The position numbers and the translations under genes were made by a program. From Pseudomonadota bacterium (lineage in GTDB: Bacteria > Pseudomonadota > Gammaproteobacteria > QQUJ01): a DNA stretch of 64,000 nt. Of the stretch, positions 33,030 through 58,525 are shown piece after piece (the first letter of the stretch is position 1; each line of letters begins with the position of its first letter). The stretch spans positions 248,680-312,679 of the forward strand of contig QQUJ01000018.1 of NCBI GenBank assembly GCA_008501635.1, written 5' to 3'. The notes beneath the pieces are model-generated. The model was given only the letters and a program-made list of their open reading frames with translations, searched no databases and had not been told where the DNA came from.

Positions 33030-33110
33030 TCGCCGCTCAAGGCGGTGATGGCCGTCTGGCGTTCGCTGTAACCTGCTAAAATCGCCCGAAACCCCGCATT
33101 GAGGTCGGAA

Positions 33111-34142
33111 ATGAACCGCCGTGATGACAAGGGCAGTTCTGCAGATTGGGCACGCTTCTGGGACCATGCACAGCAGCAGGCATGGGATGCCTGGAGCCAG
33201 ATGGCACGTCAGGCGCTGCCGCAACCGAAACCGCAACCCGATCAGCTATGGAAGCTTTGCGCCGATGGCCTGGAACGTCTGTGGCAAGGACGAAGTGCGC
33301 AGCTAACGGGTACGTCGCAAGAGGTTTTCAGCCGCGTGATCGATCAGGGCAAGGGTTTTCTTTTTCTCAGCCATGAGCTGCTGCGTGCTGTCGAAACGAT
33401 ACAGAAACAAGAGGAGCAGGGCGCTGATTGGAAACTGGCGCTGCGCAACGCTGTTGACAGGATTCAGGAGCAACTGCGGCAGTGGTCGGGGGTCTCTGTC
33501 GGGCAGACCGCGCTTTGGGGATTGCCGGCGGAAATGTGGGAGCGACTCTCATCGGCTCTAACGCTGGCGCCTGGTGACTGGTCGGCACACCTGAGGGCTG
33601 TTGCAGGCAAACCGCAAGAAGCGGCCCAGAGTTACCAGGATTGGTTGGAGTATTGGCCGGGGCTCAGCCGTGAGTGGCAGCTGCGTGCCAGGGCGGGGGG
33701 GCAGCGCGCGGAACGGTATCAGGAAGCATGGCGTTGTTATGCCGCGCAATTGCTCGATGTGGGTGTGTTGGCGCTTGATTATCTGTACGAGCGTCTGATT
33801 CAGATGGGTGAAATGGGTGGACGGATCCGTGATCTGCATACTCTATACGATCTCTGGATCGATGCTGCCGAGCAGGCTTATGCAGAGGTGGTGAGCACGC
33901 CGGAGTTTGCCAAACAGCAGGCCGAGGTCGTCAACGCGGCGGTTGCGCTCAAGCTCTGCCTGCATGAGTCCCTCGAAACCGTCGCCCGGATCAACAACCT
34001 CCCGACCCGCGCCGAGCTCGATAGCGCTCAACGCGCTATCAAGGAGCTGCGTGCCGAACTGGCGGACGTGCGCGCTCAACTCGCCGAATCCACGAAACCT
34101 GATTCAACGCGGAAACGAAGCCGCAAAGGCGCGGGAAAGTGA
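33111..34142 (+). CDS. phaE: class III poly(3-hydroxyalkanoate) synthase subunit PhaE
   Basis: A Trp-rich N-terminus and the conserved C-terminal PhaE box (NLPTRAELDSAQRAIKELRAEL), about 343 aa. Its stop overlaps the phaC start (GTGA). Confidence 0.8.
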   Translation: MNRRDDKGSSADWARFWDHAQQQAWDAWSQMARQALPQPKPQPDQLWKLCADGLERLWQGRSAQLTGTSQEVFSRVIDQGKGFLFLSHELLRAVETIQKQEEQGADWKLALRNAVDRIQEQLRQWSGVSVGQTALWGLPAEMWERLSSALTLAPGDWSAHLRAVAGKPQEAAQSYQDWLEYWPGLSREWQLRARAGGQRAERYQEAWRCYAAQLLDVGVLALDYLYERLIQMGEMGGRIRDLHTLYDLWIDAAEQAYAEVVSTPEFAKQQAEVVNAAVALKLCLHESLETVARINNLPTRAELDSAQRAIKELRAELADVRAQLAESTKPDSTRKRSRKGAGK

Positions 34143-35209
34143 GCAGCACACCCTTCGATTTCGATCATGAGGCATTGCTTAAGGAGTTGGGTGATTTCCA
34201 GCAACAACTGACCCGCGGTTTTAACAATCTTGCAGAGATTGAAACTATCGATGTGGGGACAAGCCCGCGCGAAGAAGTTTATCGCGAGAACAAACTGCGA
34301 CTATTCCGATATCGTCCGTTGGTGAACAATCCGCATCCGGTGCCGTTGCTTATTGTTTACGCGCTGGTGAACCGACCCTACATGGTGGACTTGCAGCCGG
34401 ATCGATCGCTGGTCAGGCGTCTGCTCGAGTCGGGTATCGATGTCTATTTGGTCGACTGGGGTTACCCTGATCGGGAGGACCGATTGCTTACGCTGCACGA
34501 TTACCTCAATGGTTATCTGTTGCGTTGTGTGGAGCAGATAGGTCGACGTCACAGTCTGGAGGCGATCAATCTGCTCGGGATCTGCCAGGGGGGTACTTTC
34601 AGCCTTTGTTTCAGCGCGATGCACCCACAGCGGGTGCGCAACCTGATCACTATGGTGACTCCGGTGGATTTCAGTACCGAAGGAAACCTGCTGGCGCATT
34701 TCATGCGCTCGATCGACGTCGATCAACTGATCGAAGCCTACGGTAACGTGCCTGGGGAGTTGCTCAATTGGGCTTTTCTGGCGCTGAAGCCATTCCGACT
34801 TGTCAGTCAGAAGTACGTGAATCTGGTCGAGATTCTCGATAGCCGCGAGAAAGCACTCAACTTTCTGCGCATGGAAAAATGGATTTTCGACAGCCCGGAT
34901 CAACCGGGCGAGGTATTCCGTGAGTTCGTCAGGCAGTTCTTTCAGGAGAACCGCCTGATGACAGGCGAGGCGGAGATTGGCGGGAAGCGGATTGATCTCC
35001 ATGCCTTGAAGATGCCGATACTCAATATCTACGCAACCCAGGATCACTTGGTGCCGCCGGCCGCTTCGTTGGCGCTGGGCGACTGTGTGGAGAATGATGA
35101 CTATACGGTAGCAGCCTTTCATGGCGGGCATATAGGGATCTATGTCAGTAGTCGGGCGCAGAAAGAGATCCCTGCCGCTATTGCGGATTGGCTGCGTCAG
35201 CGGAGATAG
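34139..35209 (+). CDS. phaC: class III poly(3-hydroxyalkanoate) synthase catalytic subunit PhaC
   Basis: 356 aa with a GICQGG lipase-box Cys. Its full length aligns with Allochromatium-type PhaC (VPLLIVYALVNRPYM, LRMEKWIFDSPDQ). Confidence 0.9.
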   Translation: MSSTPFDFDHEALLKELGDFQQQLTRGFNNLAEIETIDVGTSPREEVYRENKLRLFRYRPLVNNPHPVPLLIVYALVNRPYMVDLQPDRSLVRRLLESGIDVYLVDWGYPDREDRLLTLHDYLNGYLLRCVEQIGRRHSLEAINLLGICQGGTFSLCFSAMHPQRVRNLITMVTPVDFSTEGNLLAHFMRSIDVDQLIEAYGNVPGELLNWAFLALKPFRLVSQKYVNLVEILDSREKALNFLRMEKWIFDSPDQPGEVFREFVRQFFQENRLMTGEAEIGGKRIDLHALKMPILNIYATQDHLVPPAASLALGDCVENDDYTVAAFHGGHIGIYVSSRAQKEIPAAIADWLRQRR

Positions 35210-35215
35210 CGGGCG

Positions 35216-35836
35216 ATGGATAATTGTGGAGGAATCCTGCAGGTCTACGCCATCGACGGTGTCATACCCGTGGTGCATCCACAAGCCTACGTCCATCCTA
35301 CCGCCGTTTTGATCGGTGATGTGATCATCGATGCAGGAACCTATGTAGGGCCGGGCGCATCGTTGCGGGGGGATCTGGGCCGTATTCGAATCGGCAGAGG
35401 ATGCAATATCCAGGACAACTGCATTGTTCATGGCTTCCCCGGGGGTGAAACCGTGGTTGAGGAGAACGGACATATTGCCCATGGCTCGGTGCTTCATGGG
35501 TGTGCGGTGCTGCGCAATGCCCTGGTGGGTATGAATGCCGTCGTAATGGATGGTGCCCAGGTTGGTGAATCGGCTATCGTTGCGGCCATGGCGCTCGTCA
35601 CTGCGGGCACGCAGGTACCCTCCAGGCATCTTTTGGCGGGAGTCCCTGGTCGTATAGTGCGCGAGCTCTCCGACGCCGAGCTGGCATGGAAAGTCGAGGC
35701 TACTGCCGAGTATCAGCATTTGACGACGCGCTGCCTGCAGACACTCGCCCGGGTGATGCCGCTCACGGAGGAGGAGCCTGATCGTCCCCAACTCCACCCT
35801 CGGGGTGTGGCTCCCCTGCACCTGACCAGGAAATAG
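35216..35836 (+). CDS. left-handed beta-helix hexapeptide-repeat protein (gamma-carbonic anhydrase / PaaY / YrdA family)
   Basis: Hexapeptide repeats and conserved His residues (IVHGFPG, HGSVLHG). It starts 7 nt after the phaC stop. Confidence 0.7.
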   Translation: MDNCGGILQVYAIDGVIPVVHPQAYVHPTAVLIGDVIIDAGTYVGPGASLRGDLGRIRIGRGCNIQDNCIVHGFPGGETVVEENGHIAHGSVLHGCAVLRNALVGMNAVVMDGAQVGESAIVAAMALVTAGTQVPSRHLLAGVPGRIVRELSDAELAWKVEATAEYQHLTTRCLQTLARVMPLTEEEPDRPQLHPRGVAPLHLTRK

Positions 35837-36135
35837 TTTGATCCGCCGCACCGATTCTTCGCTTTCGCGTTTAGGATGCTAGACTACCCAATAACGCTAC
35901 CTCGAGAGGGGATATTGGTGTGGCTGATAACGATGCGCCCTATGAGGGGAAAGAACGTCGTAAGGAGCAGCGCCGCAAGCAAGAAGACCGGCGGGAACTG
36001 GTTCGTTTCGAACCGGAGAAAGAACCTCGGCGCAAGAAGAAGGGGCGACGCAAGGACGATGGCGCTGATATTTGGGATCGCCGCGATATCTGATCGTATC
36101 CCTCGGTAGGATAATTTTCTCCAAGGGCGGCAATA

Positions 36136-36173
36136 CGCCGAAACGGATCTCGGTAGACGGCCGAGGTTCGGCG
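36136..36173 (+). promoter_or_regulatory. nested RNA hairpin in the 5' leader of the response-regulator/GGDEF operon (CGCCGAA...CTCGG-tagacgg-CCGAG-g-TTCGGCG)
   Basis: 7-bp outer and 5-bp inner perfect inverted repeats, 43 nt upstream of the REC-gene ATG. No U-tract follows. Confidence 0.3.
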
Positions 36174-36215
36174 TGCTCTTGAACTGACACCGAACAAAGC
36201 AAAGCTCAGGCAACC

Positions 36216-37214
36216 ATGACCACCGCGGTACTTATTTGCGACGACTCCAGCATGGCGCGCAAACAGATGGCGCGCACACTCGCAGACGGTTGGGACGTGG
36301 CGCTCTCTTTCGCCAGCAATGGGGTGGAGGCGTTGGCGGCCATCAAAGAGGGGAAGGGCGACGTGCTCTTTCTCGATCTGAATATGCCCGTGATGGATGG
36401 GTATGAAACGCTACAAGCCATCAACCGTGAAGATCTTCCAACGATGGTGATCGTGGTCTCCGGTGATATCCAGCCCGATGCGCAACAACGGGCGAGCAAA
36501 TTGGGGGCGTTGGCGTTTATCAGGAAACCGGTAGTCAAGGAAGAAGTATTCGAAATTCTCTCCCAATATGGCATCGTCAGCGAAGCAGGTGCTGTGGCGA
36601 TCGCGGCCCCCGAGGCCAGCGGCTCTGTCGGCATCATGGATTGTTATCAAGAGGTGGCCAACGTCGCGATGGGGCAAGCCGCCGATCTGCTGGCACGTCT
36701 GCTCGGCGTATTCGTGGTTCTTCCAGTGCCAAACGTCAATTTGCTTGAGCCGAGCGAGCTGCAAATGGCGCTGGCACAGACGACGGAGGAGGCTTCGGTG
36801 TCTGCGGTGTCACAAGGATTTATTGGCGGCGGTATTGCGGGTGAGGCGTTGTTGCTCTTCCATGATTCCAACTTCGAACAGATTGCGCGTTTGATGCATT
36901 ACGAAGGCGAAGTCGACGATGCCATGGAACGGGAATTGGTTATGGACGTTGCCAGTATCCTGATCGGAGCCTGCGTTAAGGGTCTAGCCGCGCAGCTGGA
37001 TGTCAGTTTCAGTCAAGGGCACCCGGTCATCCTCGGGCAGCATGTCAACATGGCCCACCTGGTCGACGGCAAAGCGTGCAGTTGGAGCAAGACTTTGGCG
37101 ATTGAAATCAGCTACACCCTGGAGGACGTCGATATCAGTTTCGATCTATTGCTGCTGATCGCCGAGGATTCGCTACCGACCGTCGATGGAAAACTCGCTT
37201 TTATGTTGGAGTGA
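36216..37214 (+). CDS. response regulator with an N-terminal CheY-like receiver domain and a C-terminal CheC-like (CheC/CheX/FliY phosphatase family) domain
   Basis: REC: DD pair, phospho-acceptor in LFLDLNMPVMDG, and a conserved K. C-terminal: a D-x3-E-x2-N-x22-P CheC active-site motif (DCYQEVANVAMGQAADLLARLLG...P) plus a degenerate second repeat. Confidence 0.65.
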   Translation: MTTAVLICDDSSMARKQMARTLADGWDVALSFASNGVEALAAIKEGKGDVLFLDLNMPVMDGYETLQAINREDLPTMVIVVSGDIQPDAQQRASKLGALAFIRKPVVKEEVFEILSQYGIVSEAGAVAIAAPEASGSVGIMDCYQEVANVAMGQAADLLARLLGVFVVLPVPNVNLLEPSELQMALAQTTEEASVSAVSQGFIGGGIAGEALLLFHDSNFEQIARLMHYEGEVDDAMERELVMDVASILIGACVKGLAAQLDVSFSQGHPVILGQHVNMAHLVDGKACSWSKTLAIEISYTLEDVDISFDLLLLIAEDSLPTVDGKLAFMLE

Positions 37215-37220
37215 TGGGGG

Positions 37221-38183
37221 ATGGAAAGCGATAAAATAGACATTCGAGAACTGCACTGGATGATGGATATGGTGCAGAGTATCGATGTCGGACTCATCGT
37301 CATTGATCGCGAGTATCGGATTTCCGTGTGGAACAGCTTCATGCAGAATCACAGTGGCAAGAGCGCTGAATCCGTTCAGGAGCGGACGTTGTTCGAGGTA
37401 TTCCCAGAGTTGTCCAGAGAGTGGTTTCAGCGCAAGGCGGAGTCTGTGTTTCTTCTTAAAACGAAGGCTTTTACCACTTGGGAGCAGCGCCCCTTTCTGT
37501 TTCGCTTCAAAAGCTATCGGCCTATTACAGGCGCCGAGGAGTTCATGTATCAGAACGTGACCCTCAATCCGCTGGGATCTGCGACCGGTGAGGTCGATCA
37601 CATCTGCATAATTCTTTACGACGTTACCGATATCGCCTCACACAAAAGGGATCTGGAGCTCGCCAATGCGGAACTGGCCAATCTTAGTCGCACCGACCGC
37701 CTGACCCGGCTCAACAATCGCGGGCACTGGGAAGAGAACTTGGTAGCTGAGTTCCAACGCTTCAAACGCTACGGAACAAAAAGCACCCTGGTTATGTTCG
37801 ACATCGATTTCTTCAAAAAGATAAATGACACCTGCGGTCATCAGGCAGGTGATGAGGTGTTGAAGGTGATGGCCGATACTTTGCGCAAAAATATACGTAC
37901 TACCGACATCGCCGGCCGCTACGGCGGCGAGGAGTTCGGTGTCATTCTCGCGGCAACCGATGTCGAAGGCGGAGTGTTTTTCGCAGAACGATTGCGAAAA
38001 AACGTTGAGAAATTGGTGGTGACCTACGAGGGGCAGGAGATCCGCTTTACGATTAGTCTGGGTATCGCTCCGGCAGACGAAGAGATGAAGGATTACAAGC
38101 AATGGTTGGAGTGTTCGGATCAGGCCCTTTACGCATCAAAACATGGGGGGCGTAATCGACTTACCATAGCCGGCCAAACGTAA
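37221..38183 (+). CDS. PAS-domain diguanylate cyclase (GGDEF; GGEEF active site with an RxxD I-site)
   Basis: An N-terminal PAS fold, then RTTDIAGRYGGEEF. It starts 6 nt after the stop of the REC/CheC-like gene. Confidence 0.85.
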   Translation: MESDKIDIRELHWMMDMVQSIDVGLIVIDREYRISVWNSFMQNHSGKSAESVQERTLFEVFPELSREWFQRKAESVFLLKTKAFTTWEQRPFLFRFKSYRPITGAEEFMYQNVTLNPLGSATGEVDHICIILYDVTDIASHKRDLELANAELANLSRTDRLTRLNNRGHWEENLVAEFQRFKRYGTKSTLVMFDIDFFKKINDTCGHQAGDEVLKVMADTLRKNIRTTDIAGRYGGEEFGVILAATDVEGGVFFAERLRKNVEKLVVTYEGQEIRFTISLGIAPADEEMKDYKQWLECSDQALYASKHGGRNRLTIAGQT

Positions 38184-38196
38184 CGGACCGGCAGAG

Positions 38197-38227
38197 AAAA
38201 AAGGCGCACCAGCGTGCGCCTTTTTTT
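38197..38227. terminator. bidirectional rho-independent terminator (A6-GGCGCAC-cagc-GTGCGCC-T7) between the GGDEF gene and phaB
   Basis: A perfect 7-bp GC stem flanked by an A-run and a T-run, so it works on both strands. Confidence 0.8.
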
Positions 38228-38241
38228 GGCCGGCGCTCCAA

Positions 38242-38985
38242 TCAGAACATGTGCTGGCCACCATTGATGGCGAGATTGGAACCTGTGATAAATCCACCGT
38301 TCTCCTCGGCCAGGAACACGACAGCGCGGCCAATTTCTTCCGGTTTGCCCAAACGGCCAACCGGGATCTGGGCGACAATCTGTTCGCGTACCTTCTCGGG
38401 AATCGCCATTACCATCTCGGTACCGATATAGCCGGGCGAAATGGAGTTGACGGTGATGCCTTTGGCGGCACCCTCCTGAGCCAATGCCTTCGTTATGCCG
38501 TATATACCGGCCTTCGCCGCCGAGTAGTTGGCCTGACCGAATTGACCTTTCTGACCGTTGACCGATGAGATGTTAACGATGCGGCCGTATCCGCGTTCCA
38601 GCATTCCATTCCAAACCTGAGCGGTGACGTTGTAAACACTGTTCAGATTGGTGTCGATGACAGCGTGCCACTGCTCGGGGCTCATCTTCTTGAAGGTGCC
38701 GTCGCGAGTGATACCCGCATTATTGACCAGAATGTCGACCGGCCCGAGTTGTTTTTCGACCTGCTCGGCCATGGCCTTGCAGGATGCGACGTCCGTCACA
38801 TCGCCTGGCACGATCATCATGTCAAAGCCATCGGCCTTCATCTTTGCCTGCCAGGCCTGGGCTTTCTCGGCTTCGGCCGGGAAATAGTTGGCAGCCACCT
38901 TGGCGCCGCCTTTTGCCAGCTCGATGCAGACCGCGGTGCCTATACCGCCGATACCACCAGTAACCAGTGCTACTTTGCCTTGCAT
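38242..38985 (-). CDS. phaB: acetoacetyl-CoA reductase (SDR family)
   Basis: TGGIGGIG Rossmann motif and YSAAK catalytic motif; 247 aa with a strong PhaB-like alignment. Confidence 0.85.
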   Translation of the reverse strand: MQGKVALVTGGIGGIGTAVCIELAKGGAKVAANYFPAEAEKAQAWQAKMKADGFDMMIVPGDVTDVASCKAMAEQVEKQLGPVDILVNNAGITRDGTFKKMSPEQWHAVIDTNLNSVYNVTAQVWNGMLERGYGRIVNISSVNGQKGQFGQANYSAAKAGIYGITKALAQEGAAKGITVNSISPGYIGTEMVMAIPEKVREQIVAQIPVGRLGKPEEIGRAVVFLAEENGGFITGSNLAINGGQHMF

Positions 38986-39031
38986 ATCGCTACTCCTCGT
39001 CTGTGTTGCTTGTTAGCTTGATGTTGGGGGA

Positions 39032-40210
39032 TTAACGCTCGACGGCAATGGCGACACCCTGTCCACCGCCGATGCACAGCGTTGCCAGACCCTTCTTGGC
39101 ATCGCGTTTGATCATCTCGTGGAGCAGTGTCACAAAGACGCGACAGCCCGAGGCGCCGATGGGATGGCCCAGCGCAATAGCGCCTCCGTTGACGTTGACT
39201 TTATCGGGATCCCACTCCATACCGCGATTGACGGCTATGGCCTGTGCTGCGAAGGCTTCATTGGCCTCGACAAGATCCAGATCCGATACGTTCCAGCCCG
39301 CCTTTTTCAGGCACAACTGTGAAGCGGGAATCGGGCCGGTACCCATAATGGCCGGATCAACACCAGCGCTGCTGTACGCGGCGACGCGTGCCAGAGGCTC
39401 CAGACCCAGTTGGCGCGCCCGCTCGGCGCCCATTACCACAACCGCCGCGGCCCCATCGTTCAGCCCGGAAGCGTTGCCCGCCGTTACGGTGCCGTCTTTT
39501 TTGAATGCCGGCCGCAGTTTGCCGAGGCTCTCTACCGTGGCTCCGAAGCGTGGGAATTCGTCGGTTCCGAAGATGATGGGGTCGCCTTTACGCTGCGGAA
39601 TTTCGATCGGCAAGATCTCATCGGTAAAGCGGCCGGCTTTGATCGCGGCCTCAGCTTTCTGCTGTGAAGCCGCGGCGAAGACATCCTGTTCTTCGCGCCC
39701 GATGGCAAATTTTTCGGCGACGTTCTCCGCCGTGATGCCCATATGGTAAGCATGAAAGGCATCCTGGAGGCCGTCTACGATCATGGTATCGATCAACGAC
39801 CAATCCCCCATCCGCGCCCCATTGCGTGAGTTGGGTAGAACATGTGCCGAGGCGCTCATGTTTTCCTGTCCGCCGGCGATGATCACATCAGCGTCGCCAC
39901 AGCGAATAGCCTGTGCAGCCAGGTGAATCGCTTTCAGGCCGCTGCCACATACCTTGTTGATCGTCAGGGCAGGCACACCATGGGGGAGTCCACCATGAAT
40001 CGCCGCCTGACGTGCCGGGTTCTGCCCACTGCCTGCGGCAAGTACCTGTCCGAGGATAATCTCATCCACCTGTTCAGGGCTGAGACCGGTCTTGCGCATC
40101 AAGCCGCTGATAACATGGGCGCCGAGGGCGCTGGCGCTGAGACTCGCGAGTGTGCCGCCGAAACTGCCAATAGCGGTTCGCGTGGCCGCGACAATTACTA
40201 CATCTTGCAT
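39032..40210 (-). CDS. phaA: acetyl-CoA acetyltransferase (beta-ketothiolase)
   Basis: Starts [19 protein letters not shown]. Thiolase signatures [18 protein letters not shown] and CIGGGQG. The ATG is at 40208-40210. Confidence 0.9.
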
Positions 40211-40423
40211 GAACTGCCTCCAAAAGTTGTTGGCACCGAGAGGATGTGACACCGACCACCCACCGCCTCCCATGTTGGGTGGGCGAAGAACATCGGCCGA
40301 AAAACGAGGCGGCCACTATACGTCGAAGTATGGTGGTATCGCCACCTCTGGGCCCATCGAATCGCATAAAGAAAACCCCCTCATTGAGGGGGTTTTCCAT
40401 GTCACGCGATCGCTACTTGCCGC

Positions 40424-40861
40424 TCAGGCGGCTTTCTTTGGCGTAGCGCCCTTCTTAGTGCTGCCGGTGGCGGTCTTGACACCCTCTTCCACCTTCACTG
40501 CAACTGCCTTGAAACCCTCTTCGATCCTGGTGCTGGCAGACTTGAAGTTCTCCTCAGCCAGAGCGTTCAGTTCGGCTTGCGCCTCCAGCATGATCTCCAG
40601 GGCGGCCTGTGCCTGACCCTGAAGCTTGCTGGTGTAATCGGCAGCCAAAGCGGACTGTTTTTGCAGCAGATCCTGCAAGGACTTGATTTCACCAAAAGAC
40701 TGACTCTGCTTGACCCCCTCCTGGATGCTTTCGCTAACCAGGGTCAGTTGCTGTTTGGTCAAGCGCTCCATCGCACGCGAGGTGATCTGATTCATTCTCA
40801 CCACCGGCGCCAGGGCGGCCTGGTTCACTTCTTTCCAATTCTCAAACATTTCGTTCTGCAT
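40424..40861 (-). CDS. phaP: phasin (PHA granule-associated protein, PhaP family)
   Basis: 145 aa, Ala/Gln/Glu-rich amphipathic protein with a C-terminal KKxA tail, lying between phaA and phaR. Confidence 0.75.
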   Translation of the reverse strand: MQNEMFENWKEVNQAALAPVVRMNQITSRAMERLTKQQLTLVSESIQEGVKQSQSFGEIKSLQDLLQKQSALAADYTSKLQGQAQAALEIMLEAQAELNALAEENFKSASTRIEEGFKAVAVKVEEGVKTATGSTKKGATPKKAA

Positions 40862-40905
40862 GACATGCTCCTCGAATTAACAACCCACCCGTTAGGGGAT
40901 TACGT

Positions 40906-40938
40906 TTGTGCGCTGCACAAATGGTGCTATGCAGCATA
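40906..40938 (+). promoter_or_regulatory. candidate PhaR operator in the phaP promoter region: TGTGCGCTGCACA followed by the perfect palindrome CTATGC-A-GCATAG
   Basis: Dyad elements with TGC/GCA cores, 45-75 nt upstream of the phaP ATG. Known PhaR sites are TGC-rich dyads. Confidence 0.3.
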
Positions 40939-41084
40939 GGCAGAGAGGGTCTCCATGTCAAGCGTCTAGCCACCTTGTGTGTATGAATTTTTTGTGAGGA
41001 TGGCGAAAGTATCAGGGAAACTTGGTGCAGTGCAGAATACTGATCGGGAGGACCTATGGATGGGGTGGTGCGGAAGGGATCAAC

Positions 41085-41618
41085 TCAACGGTCTTTTTTA
41101 CCAGAGACCTTGTCGTTCGGTGTTTCGTTGTGAGAGGGGTCGTTCTTACCTGTCGCTGAGGCGAAGAAATTCTCCTGCATCTTCTGCCAAAGCGCCAGGT
41201 TGCGGTCAGCCATTTCGCTCATGACCGCCATGGGGGTTCGGCTCATAAGATCGGTCATCTGGTCACGGAGAATGTGTTGTTGCTCCATGAACATCTCCAT
41301 GCTTTTCTCCAGGTAACTGCTCATCACACTCTGCAGATTGTCTCCATAGAAACGGATGATTTTGGTCAACATATCGGTGGAAAAAATGGGAGAACCTTCA
41401 TCTTCCTGCTCGGAAATGATCTGCAGGAGGATATTGCGGGTGATCGCCTCGCCGCTCTTGGCATCGACAACCTGAAACTCGACGTTGTCCATGACCAACT
41501 GTTTCACGTCGGCCAGGGTGATGTAGCTACTGATCGCAGTGTCGTAAAGACGGCGATTGGGATACTTCTTGATAGTCCGGATTTCGCTCATGGATTCGCT
41601 CATAGAATAGGGATACAT
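41085..41618 (-). CDS. phaR: polyhydroxyalkanoate synthesis repressor PhaR
   Basis: IKKYPNRRLYDTAISSYITLADVKQLV is the hallmark PhaR N-terminal DNA-binding motif. The start is ambiguous among three in-frame ATGs (41618, 41603, 41591). Confidence 0.85.
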   Translation of the reverse strand: MYPYSMSESMSEIRTIKKYPNRRLYDTAISSYITLADVKQLVMDNVEFQVVDAKSGEAITRNILLQIISEQEDEGSPIFSTDMLTKIIRFYGDNLQSVMSSYLEKSMEMFMEQQHILRDQMTDLMSRTPMAVMSEMADRNLALWQKMQENFFASATGKNDPSHNETPNDKVSGKKDR

Positions 41619-41919
41619 ATCCTGCAAGTGACGCTGCTGACTGACGATGCGCGACTTCTGATCGAAGTTACCCCCAGTAAGTGGAATGTTATCAGAACGT
41701 CGGCACAGGCGGCAAAAAATTGTGCGTTGCGACAGTAGTTTGGAGGCGGGAGGGGAGCGGGAACCGGTCAGGCGCTTTGGCTGGAGCGTCAGTCGCAATA
41801 GGGGTGTGAACGCGGTTTGTTCAAGGTTTGAAAATGCTCCGATTGGTGGGGCAGTCGAGCTATTCCGTAGGGTCAATAAATTGCTTATTTAATAGATTAA
41901 TCAATAGGATAATAGCTTG

Positions 41920-53148: not shown

Positions 53149-53472
53149 ATGATACGAAAACAGGGCAGTCTCAACAAACGCGCATTGAGTGTGAAACGCG
53201 TCGCAGTCGCTGCCCTATGGTTGAGCGTAATGTTCGGCTGCGCGAGTGCACCCGTCCAGGAGATGAGCGATGCGCGCCAATCTATCGCGGCGGCGCGGGA
53301 CGCAGGTGCAGCTCAATTGGCTCCGAAGAGTTTGAGTGAGGCAGAGCGGTATTTGGAGCAGGCCAAACAGCTTCTGGATAAAGGGTTGTTCGACCAGGCT
53401 CGGCAGAGCGCACGCACCGCCAGGGAGTTAGCGCTCGAGGCGAGACGCAAAGTGTTGGAGTCCGACCGCTAA
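53149..53472 (+). CDS. DUF4398-like lipoprotein
   Basis: Lipobox (LWLSVMFGC-AS) and a helical SLSEAERYLEQAKQLL motif. Taken from the internal ATG, it is 107 aa. Confidence 0.55.
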   Translation: MIRKQGSLNKRALSVKRVAVAALWLSVMFGCASAPVQEMSDARQSIAAARDAGAAQLAPKSLSEAERYLEQAKQLLDKGLFDQARQSARTARELALEARRKVLESDR

Positions 53473-53721
53473 ACTGCTGGGATTGCCGACCGATATATCA
53501 AGTTGAAATTTGGTATATCAGGTGTGCTCTGGATCCTTGACTCATTGCAGGGGCGGTGCTACGGTCTGGCGAGGAAAACCGGACCAAACATCGGTTTACG
53601 GCGTATTTCGAGAATCAAGGACAAGAAATGCAGGGCACGGCGACTCGGAAATTTGCCAATGTTTGAGTACTTTTACATTCAACTCAGAATCTAACAATCT
53701 CTAAATTCGGAGCGATTCATC

Positions 53722-54486
53722 ATGAAGATTTTCGCGGCAACAAAGTATCTTGGGCTGGGTATCCTGGTCCTTGCCATGGGGGTGGGTTGTGCTACGGCGC
53801 CGGAAGAGGCGCCACCGCCGGCTGATACTTCCAGCCAGATGGCGGATCTGAAGGCCGCTGCAGCCCAGGCGATTGCCGATGCGCGTGCCGCCGTTAACAA
53901 GGCTCGTTCGGTTGACGGCCTGTGGCCCAGCACAGAAGACGTCTTGAATCAGGCGGTCGTCGCCTACGACGCTGGCGAGTTCGAGCGTGCTGTTCAATTG
54001 GCAAACCGGGCCAGGAGCGAAGCTGAGCAGGGCTACAATCAAGCATTGCTCGAGCGCGCTAAGGCACTGCTCCAGGAAGCGAAGCAGTATGAGAGCATGA
54101 TGAACGCCGATCAACTCAACACGCTACGCGAAGCCGAAGCGGCTATTGCCCGTTTTGAAGGTGAGCGTGCCTATGCGCTACTGAGTGGTCTTTTAGCCGA
54201 GTTGCGTTCGGCGATGATGAACTACACCGTCGAGCGTGGTGACAGCCTGTGGAAGATCTCCGGTAAGGATGAGGTTTACGGAAATCCGTACCAGTGGCCG
54301 ATTATTTACAAAAAGAACCAGGACCAGATCAAGGATGCAGATCTGATCTATCCCGGCCAGGAGTTTGCCATCGATAAAGTACCATCGCAGAGTGAAGTGG
54401 ACGCGGCGGTCAATCATGCCAAGACCCGCGGGGCCTGGTCCATCGGTGAGGTCGAAGAGTCAGACAGAGCCTATTTGGCCCGCTAA
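53722..54486 (+). CDS. lipoprotein with an N-terminal DUF4398-like helical region and a C-terminal LysM peptidoglycan-binding domain
   Basis: Lipobox (LVLAMGVGC-AT) and LysM (YTVERGDSLWKISGK...IYPGQEFAI). A GGAG Shine-Dalgarno precedes the ATG. Confidence 0.7.
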   Translation: MKIFAATKYLGLGILVLAMGVGCATAPEEAPPPADTSSQMADLKAAAAQAIADARAAVNKARSVDGLWPSTEDVLNQAVVAYDAGEFERAVQLANRARSEAEQGYNQALLERAKALLQEAKQYESMMNADQLNTLREAEAAIARFEGERAYALLSGLLAELRSAMMNYTVERGDSLWKISGKDEVYGNPYQWPIIYKKNQDQIKDADLIYPGQEFAIDKVPSQSEVDAAVNHAKTRGAWSIGEVEESDRAYLAR

Positions 54487-54512
54487 TTCGGCGATTCTAA
54501 AGTCAGTTGATT

Positions 54513-54543
54513 GAAAAGGGGTCCGAAAGGGCCCCTTTTTTTA
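54513..54543. terminator. bidirectional rho-independent terminator (A4-GGGGTCC-gaaa-GGGCCCC-T8)
   Basis: A 7-bp stem (one G-U pair) flanked by an A-run and a T-run. It lies between the convergent LysM and PilZ genes. Confidence 0.8.
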
Positions 54544-54586
54544 TCTGCGTGGTAGCAAATATTGAAGCCCTCTATGGGGGAGAGGC

Positions 54587-56209
54587 TTATCCCTTGATGC
54601 GTTCGAAATAAAAGCGATCCAGTGAGCTGGTGGCCTCGATAAGTTTGCTGGCGCGGATACGGATCTGCCCATCGCCGGATTTGATAACCGATTCCTTTTG
54701 TGGCTGATAGATCCCATGCGGGGTTACCAGTTGCGGCGGCAGAGGGCGGTCTGCCTGGCGGATCTCGATTTCCAGTGCGGCAATTGAGCGAACCGTATCG
54801 CCGCTGGTGTCGCGAACGATAACCGGTTTCGCATGATCGGAGAGATACTGCACCCCCACATTGATCTCGTCTTCCTGCTCCTGGCTCAGCCATCGAATTA
54901 CGCCAAGCAGCCAATTTTCCTGGCTGCTTGCTGGATTACGAAAAATGATCAGCTGTCCGACGCGCATCGCCGGGTTGCATGGTAGGCGCACGCTCAGAGC
55001 AACACCGCCGGTACTGTGATTGATCAGTCGCCACCGCTCCTGTTGTACGCGTATCCCGGTTGGGCGACGCATGGCGCCTGAGGTGCTTATTTCGATGGAG
55101 TCGTCTTTGTGCAGATGTGATTCGGCCGCCAGTTCCGCATCTTCTTTCAGCACTTCATGGGCCGAGTTTAGCCCGCACACGCCCTCGACCCATGAGAGGC
55201 GTTCGCGCCTTTCATGTTGGCGGGTCGGGCAGTGCCACCAGCTGAGCATCAGGTAACGCAGTACACGCACAATCTCCTGAGTCGGCAACTCCAGGTGGAT
55301 ACCCGCCTCTGCTGCGCGATTGCCTACCTCAAGTTCACGGATCTGATCATCAATCCACTGCGCGAGATCGTGAGTATCCAGAATCCGGTGGCGATCGGAA
55401 TCAATCTCCACGGCCTCACTATTGAGGGGTTGGGGCGCGCTGGTGCCTTCGAGATCGATTAAGAACTGGCCGTTCTTGCGCGGCCCCTTTGCGGGACGTG
55501 TTATTTTTCCGAGTTCGGCCCAACGGTCGAGAAAGTCATAGACCTTCCAGGCTTCACCATTGCCAAGGTGGTAGGGGTCACTCCGCGCTGTAAGGGCTAT
55601 CTGTTTATAGATGTGTGTGATGCTGGAGGAGGGCAGGCTGCTGTTTTCGTCGTCTATATAGGCGTTGTCGGCTAGCCCGTGCTCTAATGCCAATGCATAC
55701 AATTGATTAAGTTCGCCCCAAACATGACTTGAGGCGGGTGCATACGAGTGAAAACTGAATAACTGCTCCAAACCGAGAAACTTGATTGCGCGCAGGATGC
55801 TGGCTTGGAGGATACGGTCGGCGGATCTGATACCGCCTTCGGCCATCCTGTCGGTAACCACTATCTTGAAGGCAAAGGAGAGTTCCCGTGCTAACCGGCT
55901 CAGCGCCGCCAATGATTCATTGGCCTTGCGGCTCTGACGTACAGCGATTCCGGCACGTAGGAGTCGTGATTGAAGTTGGATCAGTTTGCGAAAGGTCTGG
56001 CGATAAAGTTCGACCAGCGGAAGACGTACCTGGGGTGTCAGGCGTTGGCGATTGAGGGCGGCAAGCTCTTCGCTGACTATACCGCAGGTTTTGATCGGAT
56101 CGGTGTACGGCAGCTGTTCTAGAAAGCGGCGCAGTTCTGTGGGCCTGGTCTCAATGCGCGGGTCGGGCAGATCGTTGCGCGTCGGTATCGTTAACTTTAT
56201 TTGCGTCAT
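54587..56209 (-). CDS. large (~540 aa) PilZ-domain protein (putative c-di-GMP receptor) with an uncharacterised ~430-aa N-terminal region
   Basis: A C-terminal PilZ-like signature (MRRPTGIR ... LINHSTGGVALSV, i.e. the D/NxSxxG motif). The start was set at MTQIKLTIPT (ATG 56207-56209). Confidence 0.5.
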   Translation of the reverse strand: MTQIKLTIPTRNDLPDPRIETRPTELRRFLEQLPYTDPIKTCGIVSEELAALNRQRLTPQVRLPLVELYRQTFRKLIQLQSRLLRAGIAVRQSRKANESLAALSRLARELSFAFKIVVTDRMAEGGIRSADRILQASILRAIKFLGLEQLFSFHSYAPASSHVWGELNQLYALALEHGLADNAYIDDENSSLPSSSITHIYKQIALTARSDPYHLGNGEAWKVYDFLDRWAELGKITRPAKGPRKNGQFLIDLEGTSAPQPLNSEAVEIDSDRHRILDTHDLAQWIDDQIRELEVGNRAAEAGIHLELPTQEIVRVLRYLMLSWWHCPTRQHERRERLSWVEGVCGLNSAHEVLKEDAELAAESHLHKDDSIEISTSGAMRRPTGIRVQQERWRLINHSTGGVALSVRLPCNPAMRVGQLIIFRNPASSQENWLLGVIRWLSQEQEDEINVGVQYLSDHAKPVIVRDTSGDTVRSIAALEIEIRQADRPLPPQLVTPHGIYQPQKESVIKSGDGQIRIRASKLIEATSSLDRFYFERIKG

Positions 56210-56430
56210 GCTAAGACTATAGGCCCAATGGCAACTGTGACTGCGGGGGATGGTACTGGATTTAGAGTGGATTCCGCCGCATTTTCCCTCACATGGGGCT
56301 ACTTTAGCCAGCTTCCAATGCCTGCGCCATACCTCGGTGGCGATGGAGGCTGGGAGCCTGGACACTGCAGGTCGAAGTTGAGGATACTCATGAGCGGGAT
56401 TTCTGCCTAGACATTAGGGTGTAGAAAACC

Positions 56431-56718
56431 ATGGCCACATCTGAATCGATTTGCCGGCGCTACTTCGTTGGCGGCAAGGTACAGGGTGTCTGGTTTCGTT
56501 CTGCGACGCGCGAGATCGCTTTGGAATTGGGGCTTTCCGGCTACGCCCGTAATCTCGCAGATGGTCGCGTTGAAGTGCTCGCATGTGGCGCACGGGAAGC
56601 GCTGCAGGAGTTGGAAGTTTGGCTATGGCGGGGGTCGCCTGCAGCAGTGGTAGCGGAAGTCACGCCCGAAACGGCAGATGGCGCGGAAGTAATCCCCGGG
56701 CGTTTCGCGGTCCTGTAG
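56431..56718 (+). CDS. acyP: acylphosphatase
   Basis: 95 aa with the [35 protein letters not shown] signature (VxGxVQGVxFR). Confidence 0.85.
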
Positions 56719-56731
56719 AGGAGGAAACAGT

Positions 56732-58525
56732 TTGGCGGTGCATGGAAAAAAGGCGTTAGAAACGCCGGATCGTAAGCTGAAGCTTGGCGAGATCGTCGAG
56801 ACCCTGGTAAAGGAGGGTCTGGTCGCCGATGCTCAGGCACAGCAACTGTATGCCAGGACAACCAACAGCCATTTGAACCTTCACCCCCTGGTGGTTATTG
56901 CCGATCAGGGCTGGACGCTACTTGGTCATCCGGGACGCAAACTGTCTTTGGAATATCTGACGGAGTGGCTTGCGCAGCATAGCCACCTGCCCTACTACCG
57001 TATCGATCCACTGAAAATCGACGTTGCCAAGGTCACGGCGGTGATGTCGCATGCCTATGCTGCGCGGTTTCGAATTCTGCCGGTGGAGGTGGAGCGCGAG
57101 GCGGTCGTGATTGCCACCGCCGAACCCCTGGTTCGTGAGTGGGTGAAAGAGCTTACCCATGTCCTGCGCTGCAAGGTACGTCGGGTGGTAGCGAATCCCG
57201 CTGAGATCACACGCTATCTCGATGAGTTTTACGGGCTAAGCCGCTCGATCAAAGAGGCCGTGTCCGAGAAGGGCGCGGAGAGCCCGGTCGGTATCACCAA
57301 TCTGGAGCAATTGGTGGAGTTGGGGCGCAGCGGCAAGCTTGATGCCAATGACCATCACATCGTCAGTATCGTGGATTGGCTGTTGCAGTACGCATTCGAG
57401 CAGCGAGCCAGCGATATTCATGTGGAGCCACGCCGCGATGCCGGCAACATTCGTTTCCGTATCGATGGTGTCCTCCATTTGGTTTACGAGATGCCGGTCC
57501 CGGTGATGGCGGCGGTCACCAGTCGCATCAAAACGCTGGGTCGTATGGATGTGGTGGAACGGCGGCGCCCCCAGGATGGACGGGTTAAAACCCGCACGCC
57601 CAAAGGCAACGAGGTGGAACTGCGGCTTTCCACTATGCCGACCGCATTCGGTGAAAAACTCGTGATGCGGATATTTAATCCCGATGTTTTGGTGCGCGAC
57701 TTCCGGCAACTCGGTTTTACCGAGAGCGCGGTCGCCACCTGGAATGCGATGACCCGTCATAGCCACGGAATCGTCTTGGTTACCGGCCCTACCGGTTCGG
57801 GTAAGACGACTACGCTCTATTCCACACTGAAGCAGCTGGCCAAACCCGAGGTCAACGTCTGCACGGTGGAAGATCCCATTGAGATGGTAGAACCCAGCTT
57901 CAATCAGATGCAGGTCCAGCACAATATCGGTCTCGATTTTGCCAGCGGGGTGCGTACCCTGCTGCGCCAGGATCCCGACGTGATCATGGTGGGCGAAATA
58001 CGTGATCTGGAAACAGCGCGCATGGCCACGCAAGCCGCACTCACGGGGCACTTGGTGCTCTCGACGCTCCACACCAATGATTCGATTTCTGCGATAACGC
58101 GATTAATGGAGATCGGTGTACCGGCCTACCTGATTCGCGCGACGTTGCTCGGGGTAATGGCCCAGCGCCTCATCCGTACCCTCTGCCCGCACTGCAAGCA
58201 GGCGGGTGAGTTGGATGCAGCAGCCTGGAAGGCACTGACCGCAGGCAGCATGCAGTCACATCCGACCTCCATCATGCAACCGGTCGGATGCGATGAGTGC
58301 CGCCATACAGGCTATCTGGGGCGACACGGCATCTACGAGATGCTGCCCATATCATCGAAGCTCAAAGGCATGATTCAGAACGATTTCAGTCTGCGAACCG
58401 TCAAGCAGCAGGCGTTGACGGAGGGTCTGCGGGAGTTACGGATCGCCGGTGCGCTGAAGGTCGCCGAAGGGCTGACGACGCTTGAGGAGGTATTCAAGGT
58501 TGCGGCCCCCGCGGAGAACGACTGA
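56732..58525 (+). CDS. orphan GspE/PilB/MshE-family secretion ATPase with a T2SSE_N-type N-terminal domain
   Basis: Walker A (GPTGSGKTTT), Asp and His boxes, a tetracysteine Zn motif (CPHCK...CDECRHTG), and an N-terminal KLGEIVETLVKEGLVADAQAQQL T2SSE_N-like segment. It uses a TTG start 7 nt after GAGGAGG. No other T2SS or T4P genes are nearby. Confidence 0.8.
   Translation: MAVHGKKALETPDRKLKLGEIVETLVKEGLVADAQAQQLYARTTNSHLNLHPLVVIADQGWTLLGHPGRKLSLEYLTEWLAQHSHLPYYRIDPLKIDVAKVTAVMSHAYAARFRILPVEVEREAVVIATAEPLVREWVKELTHVLRCKVRRVVANPAEITRYLDEFYGLSRSIKEAVSEKGAESPVGITNLEQLVELGRSGKLDANDHHIVSIVDWLLQYAFEQRASDIHVEPRRDAGNIRFRIDGVLHLVYEMPVPVMAAVTSRIKTLGRMDVVERRRPQDGRVKTRTPKGNEVELRLSTMPTAFGEKLVMRIFNPDVLVRDFRQLGFTESAVATWNAMTRHSHGIVLVTGPTGSGKTTTLYSTLKQLAKPEVNVCTVEDPIEMVEPSFNQMQVQHNIGLDFASGVRTLLRQDPDVIMVGEIRDLETARMATQAALTGHLVLSTLHTNDSISAITRLMEIGVPAYLIRATLLGVMAQRLIRTLCPHCKQAGELDAAAWKALTAGSMQSHPTSIMQPVGCDECRHTGYLGRHGIYEMLPISSKLKGMIQNDFSLRTVKQQALTEGLRELRIAGALKVAEGLTTLEEVFKVAAPAEND

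Follow-up and report, generated by a model that had tools for sequence, protein, structure and literature searches.

The locus at positions 53149-58525 of the window (i.e., the whole stretch of 64,000 nucleotides analyzed) is best explained, with a probability of about 0.6, as a conserved housekeeping synteny block in which two accessory genes lie, independent of each other and serving a type IVa pilus machine whose genes are located elsewhere. One of them encodes a 540-aa protein that belongs to the FimW family and is predicted by homology to bind c-di-GMP; the other encodes a 597-aa ATPase which, from its sequence, is a stand-alone extension-type motor of the TfpB family. The sequence-only reading had supposed an orphan c-di-GMP/ATPase module of unknown output. 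This must be corrected: both genes fall in described accessory families (FimW and TfpB) that are tied to type IVa pilus assembly, and their setting is conserved housekeeping synteny. The family assignments, motifs, fold, synteny and adjacency statistics given below are observations. The FimW gene and tfpB adjoin solely in this small lineage. The locus is ordinary and gives at most a weak hint on the mode of action of FimW.

The five ORFs of the interval are present in the ORF list at the coordinates of Table 1, and the same genes were called independently on identical metagenome contigs. They belong to a block with the conserved order purN-purM-DUF2066-pgsA-like-hda-wrbA-arsC-two lipoproteins-FimW-acyP ... 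proS. No T4P or T2SS gene was found among 30 large ORFs from the remaining parts of the window, in agreement with the earlier remark that cognate platform genes are absent from it.

Table 1. Features of the locus (positions are those of the window).
Feature	Position	Strand	Evidence
Lipoprotein 1, DUF4398, 107 aa	53149..53472	+	Pfam DUF4398, E 7e-9; signal peptide and Cys
Lipoprotein 2, LysM, 254 aa	53722..54486	+	Pfam LysM
FimW-family c-di-GMP receptor (predicted), 540 aa	54587..56209	-	FimW_N and FimW_C, PilZ motifs
FimW_N region, aa 1-326, mostly helical repeat	55232..56209	-	
PilZ RxxxR motif (RQHER), aa 330-334	55208..55222	-	Translation
PilZ (D/N)xSxxG motif (NHSTGG), aa 397-402	55004..55021	-	Translation
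Divergent intergenic region, 221 bp, between the FimW-like gene and acyP-tfpB	56210..56430	.	ORF coordinates
Acylphosphatase acyP, 95 aa	56431..56718	+	Pfam, NCBIfam
TfpB-family type IV pilus extension ATPase (predicted), 597 aa	56732..58525	+	NCBIfam NF053534, Pfam T2SSE
ATPase N-terminal ~70 residues, aa 14-85, i.e., position of the two c-di-GMP motifs of MshE	56771..56986	+	
ATPase Walker A, GPTGSGKT	57785..57808	+	
ATPase tetracysteine, CPHC-x31-CDEC	58184..58300	+	

In the precomputed annotations the 540-aa protein carries FimW_N (PF27104, E<=1e-5) followed by FimW_C (PF27125, marked as weak, E<=1e-3). Both domains occur on all 19 full-length homologues, and are free of the weak mark on P0013, P0018 and P0011. 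There is no match in NCBIfam or in a Pfam release older than FimW_N and FimW_C; the assignment combines the precomputed annotations with motif and fold tests. The architecture is a helical-repeat N-terminal domain followed by a C-terminal PilZ barrel. The ~430 aa previously considered as unassigned are thus the FimW_N domain of Pfam, while the C-terminal PilZ-like signature NHSTGG was correctly recognized and is accompanied by RQHER. R330 is found in 167 of the 168 family members and R334 in all of them. For the (D/N)xSxxG motif, the values are 167/168 for Asn or Asp, 150/168 for Ser and 168/168 for G402. NHSTGG is localized 62 residues past RxxxR, with a helix and a disordered insert (aa 367-386, pLDDT < 50) between the two. 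The FimW family comprises 5741 representatives at 50% identity (E<=1e-3).

The 597-aa ATPase reaches 907.1 bits against the NCBIfam TfpB equivalog NF053534 (cut-off 850) over aa 14-591 of 597, and stays under the cut-offs of the paralogues, i.e., 513.9 bits for PilB (675.65) and 506.1 bits for GspE, TIGR02533 (630.25). An identity as GspE is rejected on this score and on the absence of gsp genes from the window. The earlier description as a stand-alone secretion-type ATPase with Walker A, tetracysteine and a T2SSE_N-type N-terminus holds in all its parts: Pfam T2SSE is matched at E 1e-129, Pfam MshEN/T2SSE_N over aa 86-171, and the four cysteines are invariant in the family alignment (A3). Such a tetracysteine is typical of extension-type ATPases. 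Orthology to PA4958, for the FimW-like protein, and to Acinetobacter baylyi TfpB, for the ATPase, was assigned solely through curated HMMs. A literature search on PA5210, which we take to be the P. aeruginosa TfpB homologue, returned nothing relevant. In the window, tfpB is flanked by acyP and proS and is unlinked to pilC or pilD. The ATPase had been called an orphan; it does stand alone, but this is no special feature, since tfpB genes have no synteny with pilC and isolation is their defining genomic habit (TfpB literature). TfpB itself was described in A. baylyi, as a second motor for type IV pilus extension (Ellison et al. 2021, PMC8213720).

A direct binding of c-di-GMP by the ATPase, through an N-domain of the MshE type, had also been considered. 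The MshEN motif, RLGxx(L/V/I)(L/V/I)xxG(L/V/I)(L/V/I)xxxxLxxxLxxQ, is absent in its strict as in its relaxed form from the ATPase and from 120 homologues, whereas it is seen in the control MshE, PDB 5HTL (RLGDLLVEEGIV...Q), and such a binding is not supported. The N-terminal consensus of the family is KLSLHEV, with neither a conserved RLG nor an RLG...G core. The Pfam MshEN/T2SSE_N match covers the alpha/beta subdomain and not the motif-bearing helices. Searching the sequences of the PDB with the ATPase N-terminus left MshE unmatched; the only matches were to PilB, weak and confined to aa 74-179. TfpB-type ATPases can be described as a family without the MshEN c-di-GMP motif.

The assignment of the first lipoprotein to DUF4398 is confirmed. 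It has an orthologue in matching position in three relatives (L007, L011 and L093), and is a member of the conserved synteny block, probably with no part in pilus function. For the second lipoprotein, proposed as DUF4398 plus LysM, LysM is confirmed (aa 168-215, 22.3 bits vs. a Pfam cut-off of 20.9) and DUF4398 is not confirmed, no Pfam match to it being found even at E<=5; a weak pairwise match links this protein to lipoprotein 1 (E 0.006). NCBIfam LysM and SAXB are matched as well, both under their cut-offs, and the N-terminal half is helical. The gene has a conserved place beside the FimW-like gene: its orthologue in L007 is found at E 1.5e-74, although FimW of L007 is just 26% identical. 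The predicted acylphosphatase gene is real (Pfam E 3e-21; NCBIfam PRK14451, 95.1 bits vs. a cut-off of 91). It ends 13 bp upstream of tfpB and the two are probably co-transcribed. The divergent intergenic region presumably carries promoters for both directions; one weak sigma-70-like site was detected in it (56359-56388, + strand), no more than in shuffled sequences. Promoter and terminator matches show no excess.

Among relatives, the distant L007 keeps the order FimW, LysM lipoprotein, DUF4398 lipoprotein, arsC, wrbA, hda, purMN. L010, L012/L013 and L093 share the tfpB-acyP-FimW arrangement; L093 is one of the two loci obtained by scanning metagenome contigs for FimW, and repeats the arrangement in the window. 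The head-to-head order of FimW and acyP-tfpB persists where FimW identity has fallen to 53%. L011, a close relative, has FimW and acyP side by side and no tfpB at the site, and its proS lies 48 bp from acyP. In Thiohalophilus the tfpB orthologue follows ptsP, and in Sulfuricella it follows ilvD (63-65% identity); FimW is not nearby in either locus, and the ATPase gene is absent from three distant FimW loci. Over 80 species-level tfpB loci, with fetched flanks up to 10 kb, a FimW match is found near tfpB in a single one, from this clade. De novo clustering of the flanking ORFs in these loci, whose clusters are mostly spurious alternative-frame ORFs from high-GC Rhodanobacteraceae, yields no universal neighbour of tfpB, with acyP in 8/80 and proS in 5/80. 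The claim of a variable locus with three additions does not hold: the lipoproteins and the FimW-like gene hold this position in distant relatives, and tfpB alone varies.

By homology, c-di-GMP binding and a pilus output are expected, as is a T4P machine at another place in the genome, and the preferred reading can be put as follows. The PilZ barrel of the FimW-like protein would bind c-di-GMP via RxxxR (R330, R334) and NxSxxG (N397, S399, G402). If it behaves like P. aeruginosa FimW, the protein with bound ligand may then shift its oligomeric state or its location, and pilus assembly would be promoted. The TfpB-like protein would be a hexameric ATPase with Walker A and a Zn-type tetracysteine, and without a c-di-GMP sensor of its own; as A. 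baylyi TfpB, it may share the PilC platform with the canonical PilB and start or drive pilus extension. The T4P machine is assumed, since the window contains no pilus structural gene and the analysis of this genome is confined to the window. FimW and tfpB would owe their neighbourhood to the arrival of tfpB between acyP and proS in an ancestor of the clade, without forming a conserved module.

It is unlikely that the locus is a dedicated c-di-GMP module, in which FimW would be a trans-acting sensor that recruits or activates a sensorless TfpB, the divergent pair being co-regulated from the 221-bp region. The lack of the MshEN motif in TfpB and the conservation of the divergent FimW/acyP-tfpB pair in several clade members would agree with such a module. 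FimW has been described as a c-di-GMP effector promoting T4P assembly (Laventie et al. 2019, via PMC10212136 and PMC11656802); in the FimW literature consulted its target is left open, no interaction with PilB or FimX is found and no ATPase is reported as a partner of a FimW-type protein. Moreover, P. aeruginosa is listed with a TfpB homologue in addition to FimW, and tfpB of A. baylyi is faced by a gene for a GGDEF cyclase, transcribed in the opposite direction. However, the adjacency is missing in 79 of the 80 species-level tfpB loci, in the three distant FimW loci and in the close relative L011, and acyP intervenes between the two genes. GGDEF genes near tfpB (13 ORFs in 11/80 loci, 7/13 within 3 kb) are roughly as frequent as in the background; this count is close to the expectation from the sampled span and is thus rejected as evidence. 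The divergent head-to-head arrangement could reflect co-regulation instead of chance, and a direct link from FimW to TfpB is weakly supported. That FimW is the missing c-di-GMP input of TfpB-type motors, i.e., that ligand-bound FimW binds or recruits TfpB and that the head-to-head arrangement is the genomic trace of it, is decidedly improbable. If it were true, FimW would gain a target, and TfpB, which has been proposed as a pilus «initiator» motor, would gain a regulator.

The output itself may be questioned. The TfpB-like ATPase of sulfur-oxidiser-like gamma- and betaproteobacteria may be a mere sequence relative of A. baylyi TfpB that drives something other than a type IVa pilus (e.g., a T2SS-like or other filament), which is considered quite unlikely. 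The unusual conservation of these ATPases (58-67% identity across orders of Gamma- and Betaproteobacteria), their constant isolation amid housekeeping genes, the window without pilus genes and the demonstration of TfpB function in one species, A. baylyi (TfpB literature), would suit this explanation. It is opposed by the score above the curated TfpB cut-off and below that of GspE, by the presence of PilB and T4P genes in 15/16 species with TfpB, and by the phylogenetic separation of the TfpB clade from GspE and MshE (TfpB literature). A horizontally acquired variable island with three additions is very improbable. There is a slight GC dip (0.54-0.57 over 53-56.5 kb vs. 0.58-0.60 in the flanks) and close relatives differ in whether they carry tfpB, but no tRNA genes, flanking repeats, mobility genes or Rfam elements were found, and the synteny of the lipoproteins and FimW in distant relatives refutes the island for all genes but tfpB.

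Two accessory genes in a housekeeping block thus remain the preferred reading. Across the Gamma- and Betaproteobacteria, TfpB-type ATPases are very widely distributed and highly conserved, and the head-to-head position of tfpB and fimW in one clade makes TfpB a testable candidate for the FimW target.

Four known systems can be compared with the locus. (i) The extension ATPases MshE (Vibrio cholerae) and PilF (Thermus) share the ATPase superfamily and the Pfam MshEN/T2SSE_N region with the ATPase described here. They bind c-di-GMP directly via MshEN, whereas the 24-residue motif RLGxxLLxxGLLxxxxLxxxLxxQ is missing in this ATPase and its family. (ii) The PilZ-FimX-PilB complex of Xanthomonas and Pseudomonas shares the concept of a PilZ-fold protein linking a PilB-type ATPase to c-di-GMP. 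Its PilZ is small, single-domain and devoid of c-di-GMP motifs, whereas the protein of this locus has 540 aa and intact motifs. (iii) A. baylyi TfpB (PMC8213720) resembles the ATPase by the TfpB equivalog score, the lack of pilC/pilD linkage, the tetracysteine and Walker A. The A. baylyi gene faces a GGDEF cyclase gene, whereas the divergent neighbour is here a predicted c-di-GMP receptor, with acyP between. (iv) P. aeruginosa FimW (PA4958), compared through domain models, shares the long N-terminal domain, the FimW_N plus FimW_C composition and the C-terminal PilZ fold with RxxxR and (D/N)xSxxG. It is described as a c-di-GMP-binding protein that relocates to the cell pole and stimulates the assembly of pili (PMC10212136, PMC11656802), and its gene is encoded with fimX; in this locus the FimW-like gene is flanked by acyP-tfpB and, on its other side, by the LysM lipoprotein.

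By its family scores, the orphan ATPase is a TfpB-family motor. It reaches 907.1 bits (aa 14-591) with the NCBIfam equivalog NF053534 (type IV pilus assembly ATPase TfpB; cut-off 850) and stays below the cut-offs of the PilB (513.9 vs. 675.65) and GspE (506.1 vs. 630.25) models. The definition of TfpB comes from Acinetobacter baylyi, where it is a second motor for extension and phylogenetically separate from PilB; its name was chosen partly for the missing pilBCD synteny (PMC8213720). The orphan state is thus normal for this family. PilB is also present in 15 of that study's 16 TfpB-bearing species, P. aeruginosa PAO1 being listed among them (PMC8213720). The family is highly conserved, with 58-67% identity across Gamma- and Betaproteobacteria. 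The ATPase does stand alone in the window, as the sequence-only reading held: none of the 30 large ORFs elsewhere is a pilus or secretion gene, and these ORFs are housekeeping genes (Rnf, metG, PHA synthase cluster, PFOR, NAD-GDH, argG and others). Two homologues, P0028 (788 aa) and P0029 (712 aa), are 62-63% identical and exceed the norm of about 597 aa by 115-190 residues; this extra length may be an added domain or mis-called starts.

Binding of c-di-GMP by an MshEN-type N-terminal domain of the ATPase had been proposed; the motif it needs is absent. The Pfam MshEN/T2SSE_N match spans aa 86-171, i.e., the alpha/beta subdomain, and the motif-bearing helices would fall in aa 14-85. The window ATPase and all of 120 homologues lack the strict motif (RLGxx[LVI][LVI]xxG[LVI][LVI]xxxxLxxxLxxQ) as well as its relaxed form and a relaxed core. 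The TfpB family consensus at this position is DRKLSLHEVLDDLVADG, and RLG...G is not conserved. The control MshE (PDB 5HTL) contains the motif twice, with RLGDLLVEEGIVSEAQLEQALNAQ as the first copy. Searched against PDB sequences, the ATPase N-terminus gives a weak PilB match only and none to MshE.

On sequence grounds, the 540-aa PilZ protein is to be placed among the FimW-family receptors. It has no match in the Pfam and NCBIfam model sets searched. The precomputed annotation gives FimW_N (PF27104) and FimW_C (PF27125) in the identical protein and in all 19 full-length homologues, so the approximately 430 aa previously called unassigned are in fact annotated. R330 and R334 (RQHER) and G402 are invariant in an alignment of 13 homologues, down to 23% identity. 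Among 168 diverse family members, R334 and G402 are kept in all, R330 and N/D397 in 167 each and S399 in 150. These residues correspond to the canonical PilZ motifs RxxxR and (D/N)xSxxG, with a spacing of 62 residues here. In the AlphaFold2 model (pLDDT 79.8), aa 1-326 are mostly helical and aa 335-537 form a beta-barrel; a helix and a disordered insert (aa 347-386) lie between the two motifs. This is a large family, with 5741 representatives (50% identity level) at E<=1e-3 and 2630 at E<=1e-30 in a profile search; nearly all of the best 150 of the 5741 matches are aligned full-length. [quoted passage not shown]

The earlier account was mostly right for ORFs and motifs: its five ORFs are all found where it had placed them, and the gene models agree with those called independently on metagenome contigs encoding the identical ATPase. 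The FimW-like frame is open up to a GTG at 56365, and homologues begin at the ATG at 56209. For the lipoprotein said to combine DUF4398 and LysM, LysM is barely over the gathering score, and Pfam gives no DUF4398 match even at E<=5; the protein has a weak pairwise similarity to the 107-aa lipoprotein (E 0.006) and a sub-threshold NCBIfam SAXB match. The acyP and tfpB genes are probably co-transcribed, given the gap of just 13 bp. Two ORFs of the window lacking a Pfam match may not be coding at all, or may be genes of an uncharacterised kind.

Features of the window, with coordinates
Feature	Position	Strand	Remarks
NAD-specific glutamate dehydrogenase	10911-15752	+	very large, 1613 aa; all ACT and helical-motif domains
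ORF, 301 aa	16701-17606	-	no Pfam match at E<=1e-5
ORF, 210 aa	20851-21483	+	no Pfam match at E<=1e-5
Class III PHA synthase cluster	33099-41876		
phaE	33099-34142		
phaC	34139-35209		
Thiolase	39032-40273		PHA cluster
PhaR-like regulator	41085-41876		PHA cluster
DUF4398 lipoprotein, 107 aa	53149-53472	+	Pfam DUF4398 E 7e-9, signal peptide, Cys
Gap between lipoprotein genes, 249 bp	53473-53721		short spurious ORFs only, no Rfam match
LysM lipoprotein, 254 aa	53722-54486	+	LysM 22.3 bits vs. gathering score 20.9
FimW-like protein, 540 aa	54587-56209	-	ORF
Acylphosphatase (acyP)	56431-56718	+	ends 13 bp ahead of ATPase gene
TfpB-like ATPase, 597 aa	56732-58525	+	ORF, Walker A, CPHC-x31-CDEC
Walker A GPTGSGKT	57785-57808	+	TfpB-like ATPase
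Tetracysteine CPHC-x31-CDEC	58184-58300	+	TfpB-like ATPase

Homologous loci correct the description of this region as a variable locus with several additions. In L007 (FimW 26% identical) the order is fumarase-FimW-LysM lipoprotein-DUF4398 lipoprotein-arsC-wrbA-DUF2069-hda-pgsA-like-DUF2066-purM-purN, without ATPase but with unmistakable orthologues of both lipoproteins (E 1.5e-74 and 7e-17). FimW lies near wrbA or arsC-hda, again without ATPase, in L005 (Sulfuriferula, 26%) and L006 (27%). The order proS-tfpB-acyP-FimW-lipoproteins-arsC is that of the window in L010 (FimW 53%), L093 (FimW 70%) and L012/L013 (ATPase 84% identical). L011 (FimW 71%) has proS-acyP-FimW with a proS/acyP gap of 48 bp and no tfpB, suggesting that this lineage has deleted or relocated the gene. 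Since the synteny is kept in relatives, the lipoproteins, FimW and acyP are part of an old synteny; tfpB alone has been gained or lost here in a lineage-specific way. A horizontally acquired island, refuted for all genes but tfpB, is highly improbable. The locus contains no tRNA genes, flanking repeats or Rfam elements, promoter and terminator matches are not in excess and the GC dip is slight.

Some details of these loci can be added. The LysM lipoprotein (L007 9674-10513) is better conserved than the neighbouring FimW. The lipoprotein pair adjoins FimW in L007, L010, L011, L012 and L093; it is not beside FimW in L005 and L006, where a BrkB-family gene is found instead. In L011 (7475-8001; GCA_054681815.1, a close relative), acyP is called at just 65 aa.

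Seen from tfpB, the neighbourhood is different. The orthologues come after ptsP in Thiohalophilus and after ilvD in Sulfuricella, with no FimW nearby. The FimW profile matches only one of 80 species-level tfpB loci (flanks up to 10 kb per side), i.e., L013, from the window's own clade; acyP occurs in 8 and proS in 5 of them. It is unlikely that FimW and TfpB are a genuine sensor-motor pair: 79 of the 80 loci lack this neighbourhood, and the vicinity of tfpB shows no enrichment of GGDEF genes (13 such ORFs, spread over 11 loci, 7 of them within 3 kb). Points in favour of such a pair are the head-to-head layout, maintained in relatives whose FimW is as little as 53% identical, the lack of a sensor in TfpB itself, the still missing target of FimW and, in A. 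baylyi, the transcription of a GGDEF cyclase gene (ACIAD2242) opposite tfpB. A non-pilus role of the window ATPase is also rather improbable.

In two betaproteobacterial MAGs (L022 11706-15131; L089 downstream of 5854), tfpB is followed directly, on its own strand, by a GGDEF-domain gene. In the window, 36216-38183 (+) encodes a response regulator (REC and a weak CheC/CheX-like C-terminal region) and, after 7 bp, a PAS-GGDEF diguanylate cyclase, i.e., a c-di-GMP source; no link to the FimW-like receptor is seen.

The motifs, fold, family scores and synteny are established by the present analysis. The preferred reading (probability about 0.6) is that the FimW-like and TfpB-like genes serve, independently of each other, as accessory genes for a type IVa pilus machine presumably encoded elsewhere. 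The PilZ barrel would take up c-di-GMP and the ligand-bound FimW-like protein would, by homology, promote pilus assembly; the TfpB-like hexamer, judging from its relatives, may help PilB to start or drive extension at the PilC platform. Both genes fall in already known families, and their juxtaposition is specific to this clade.
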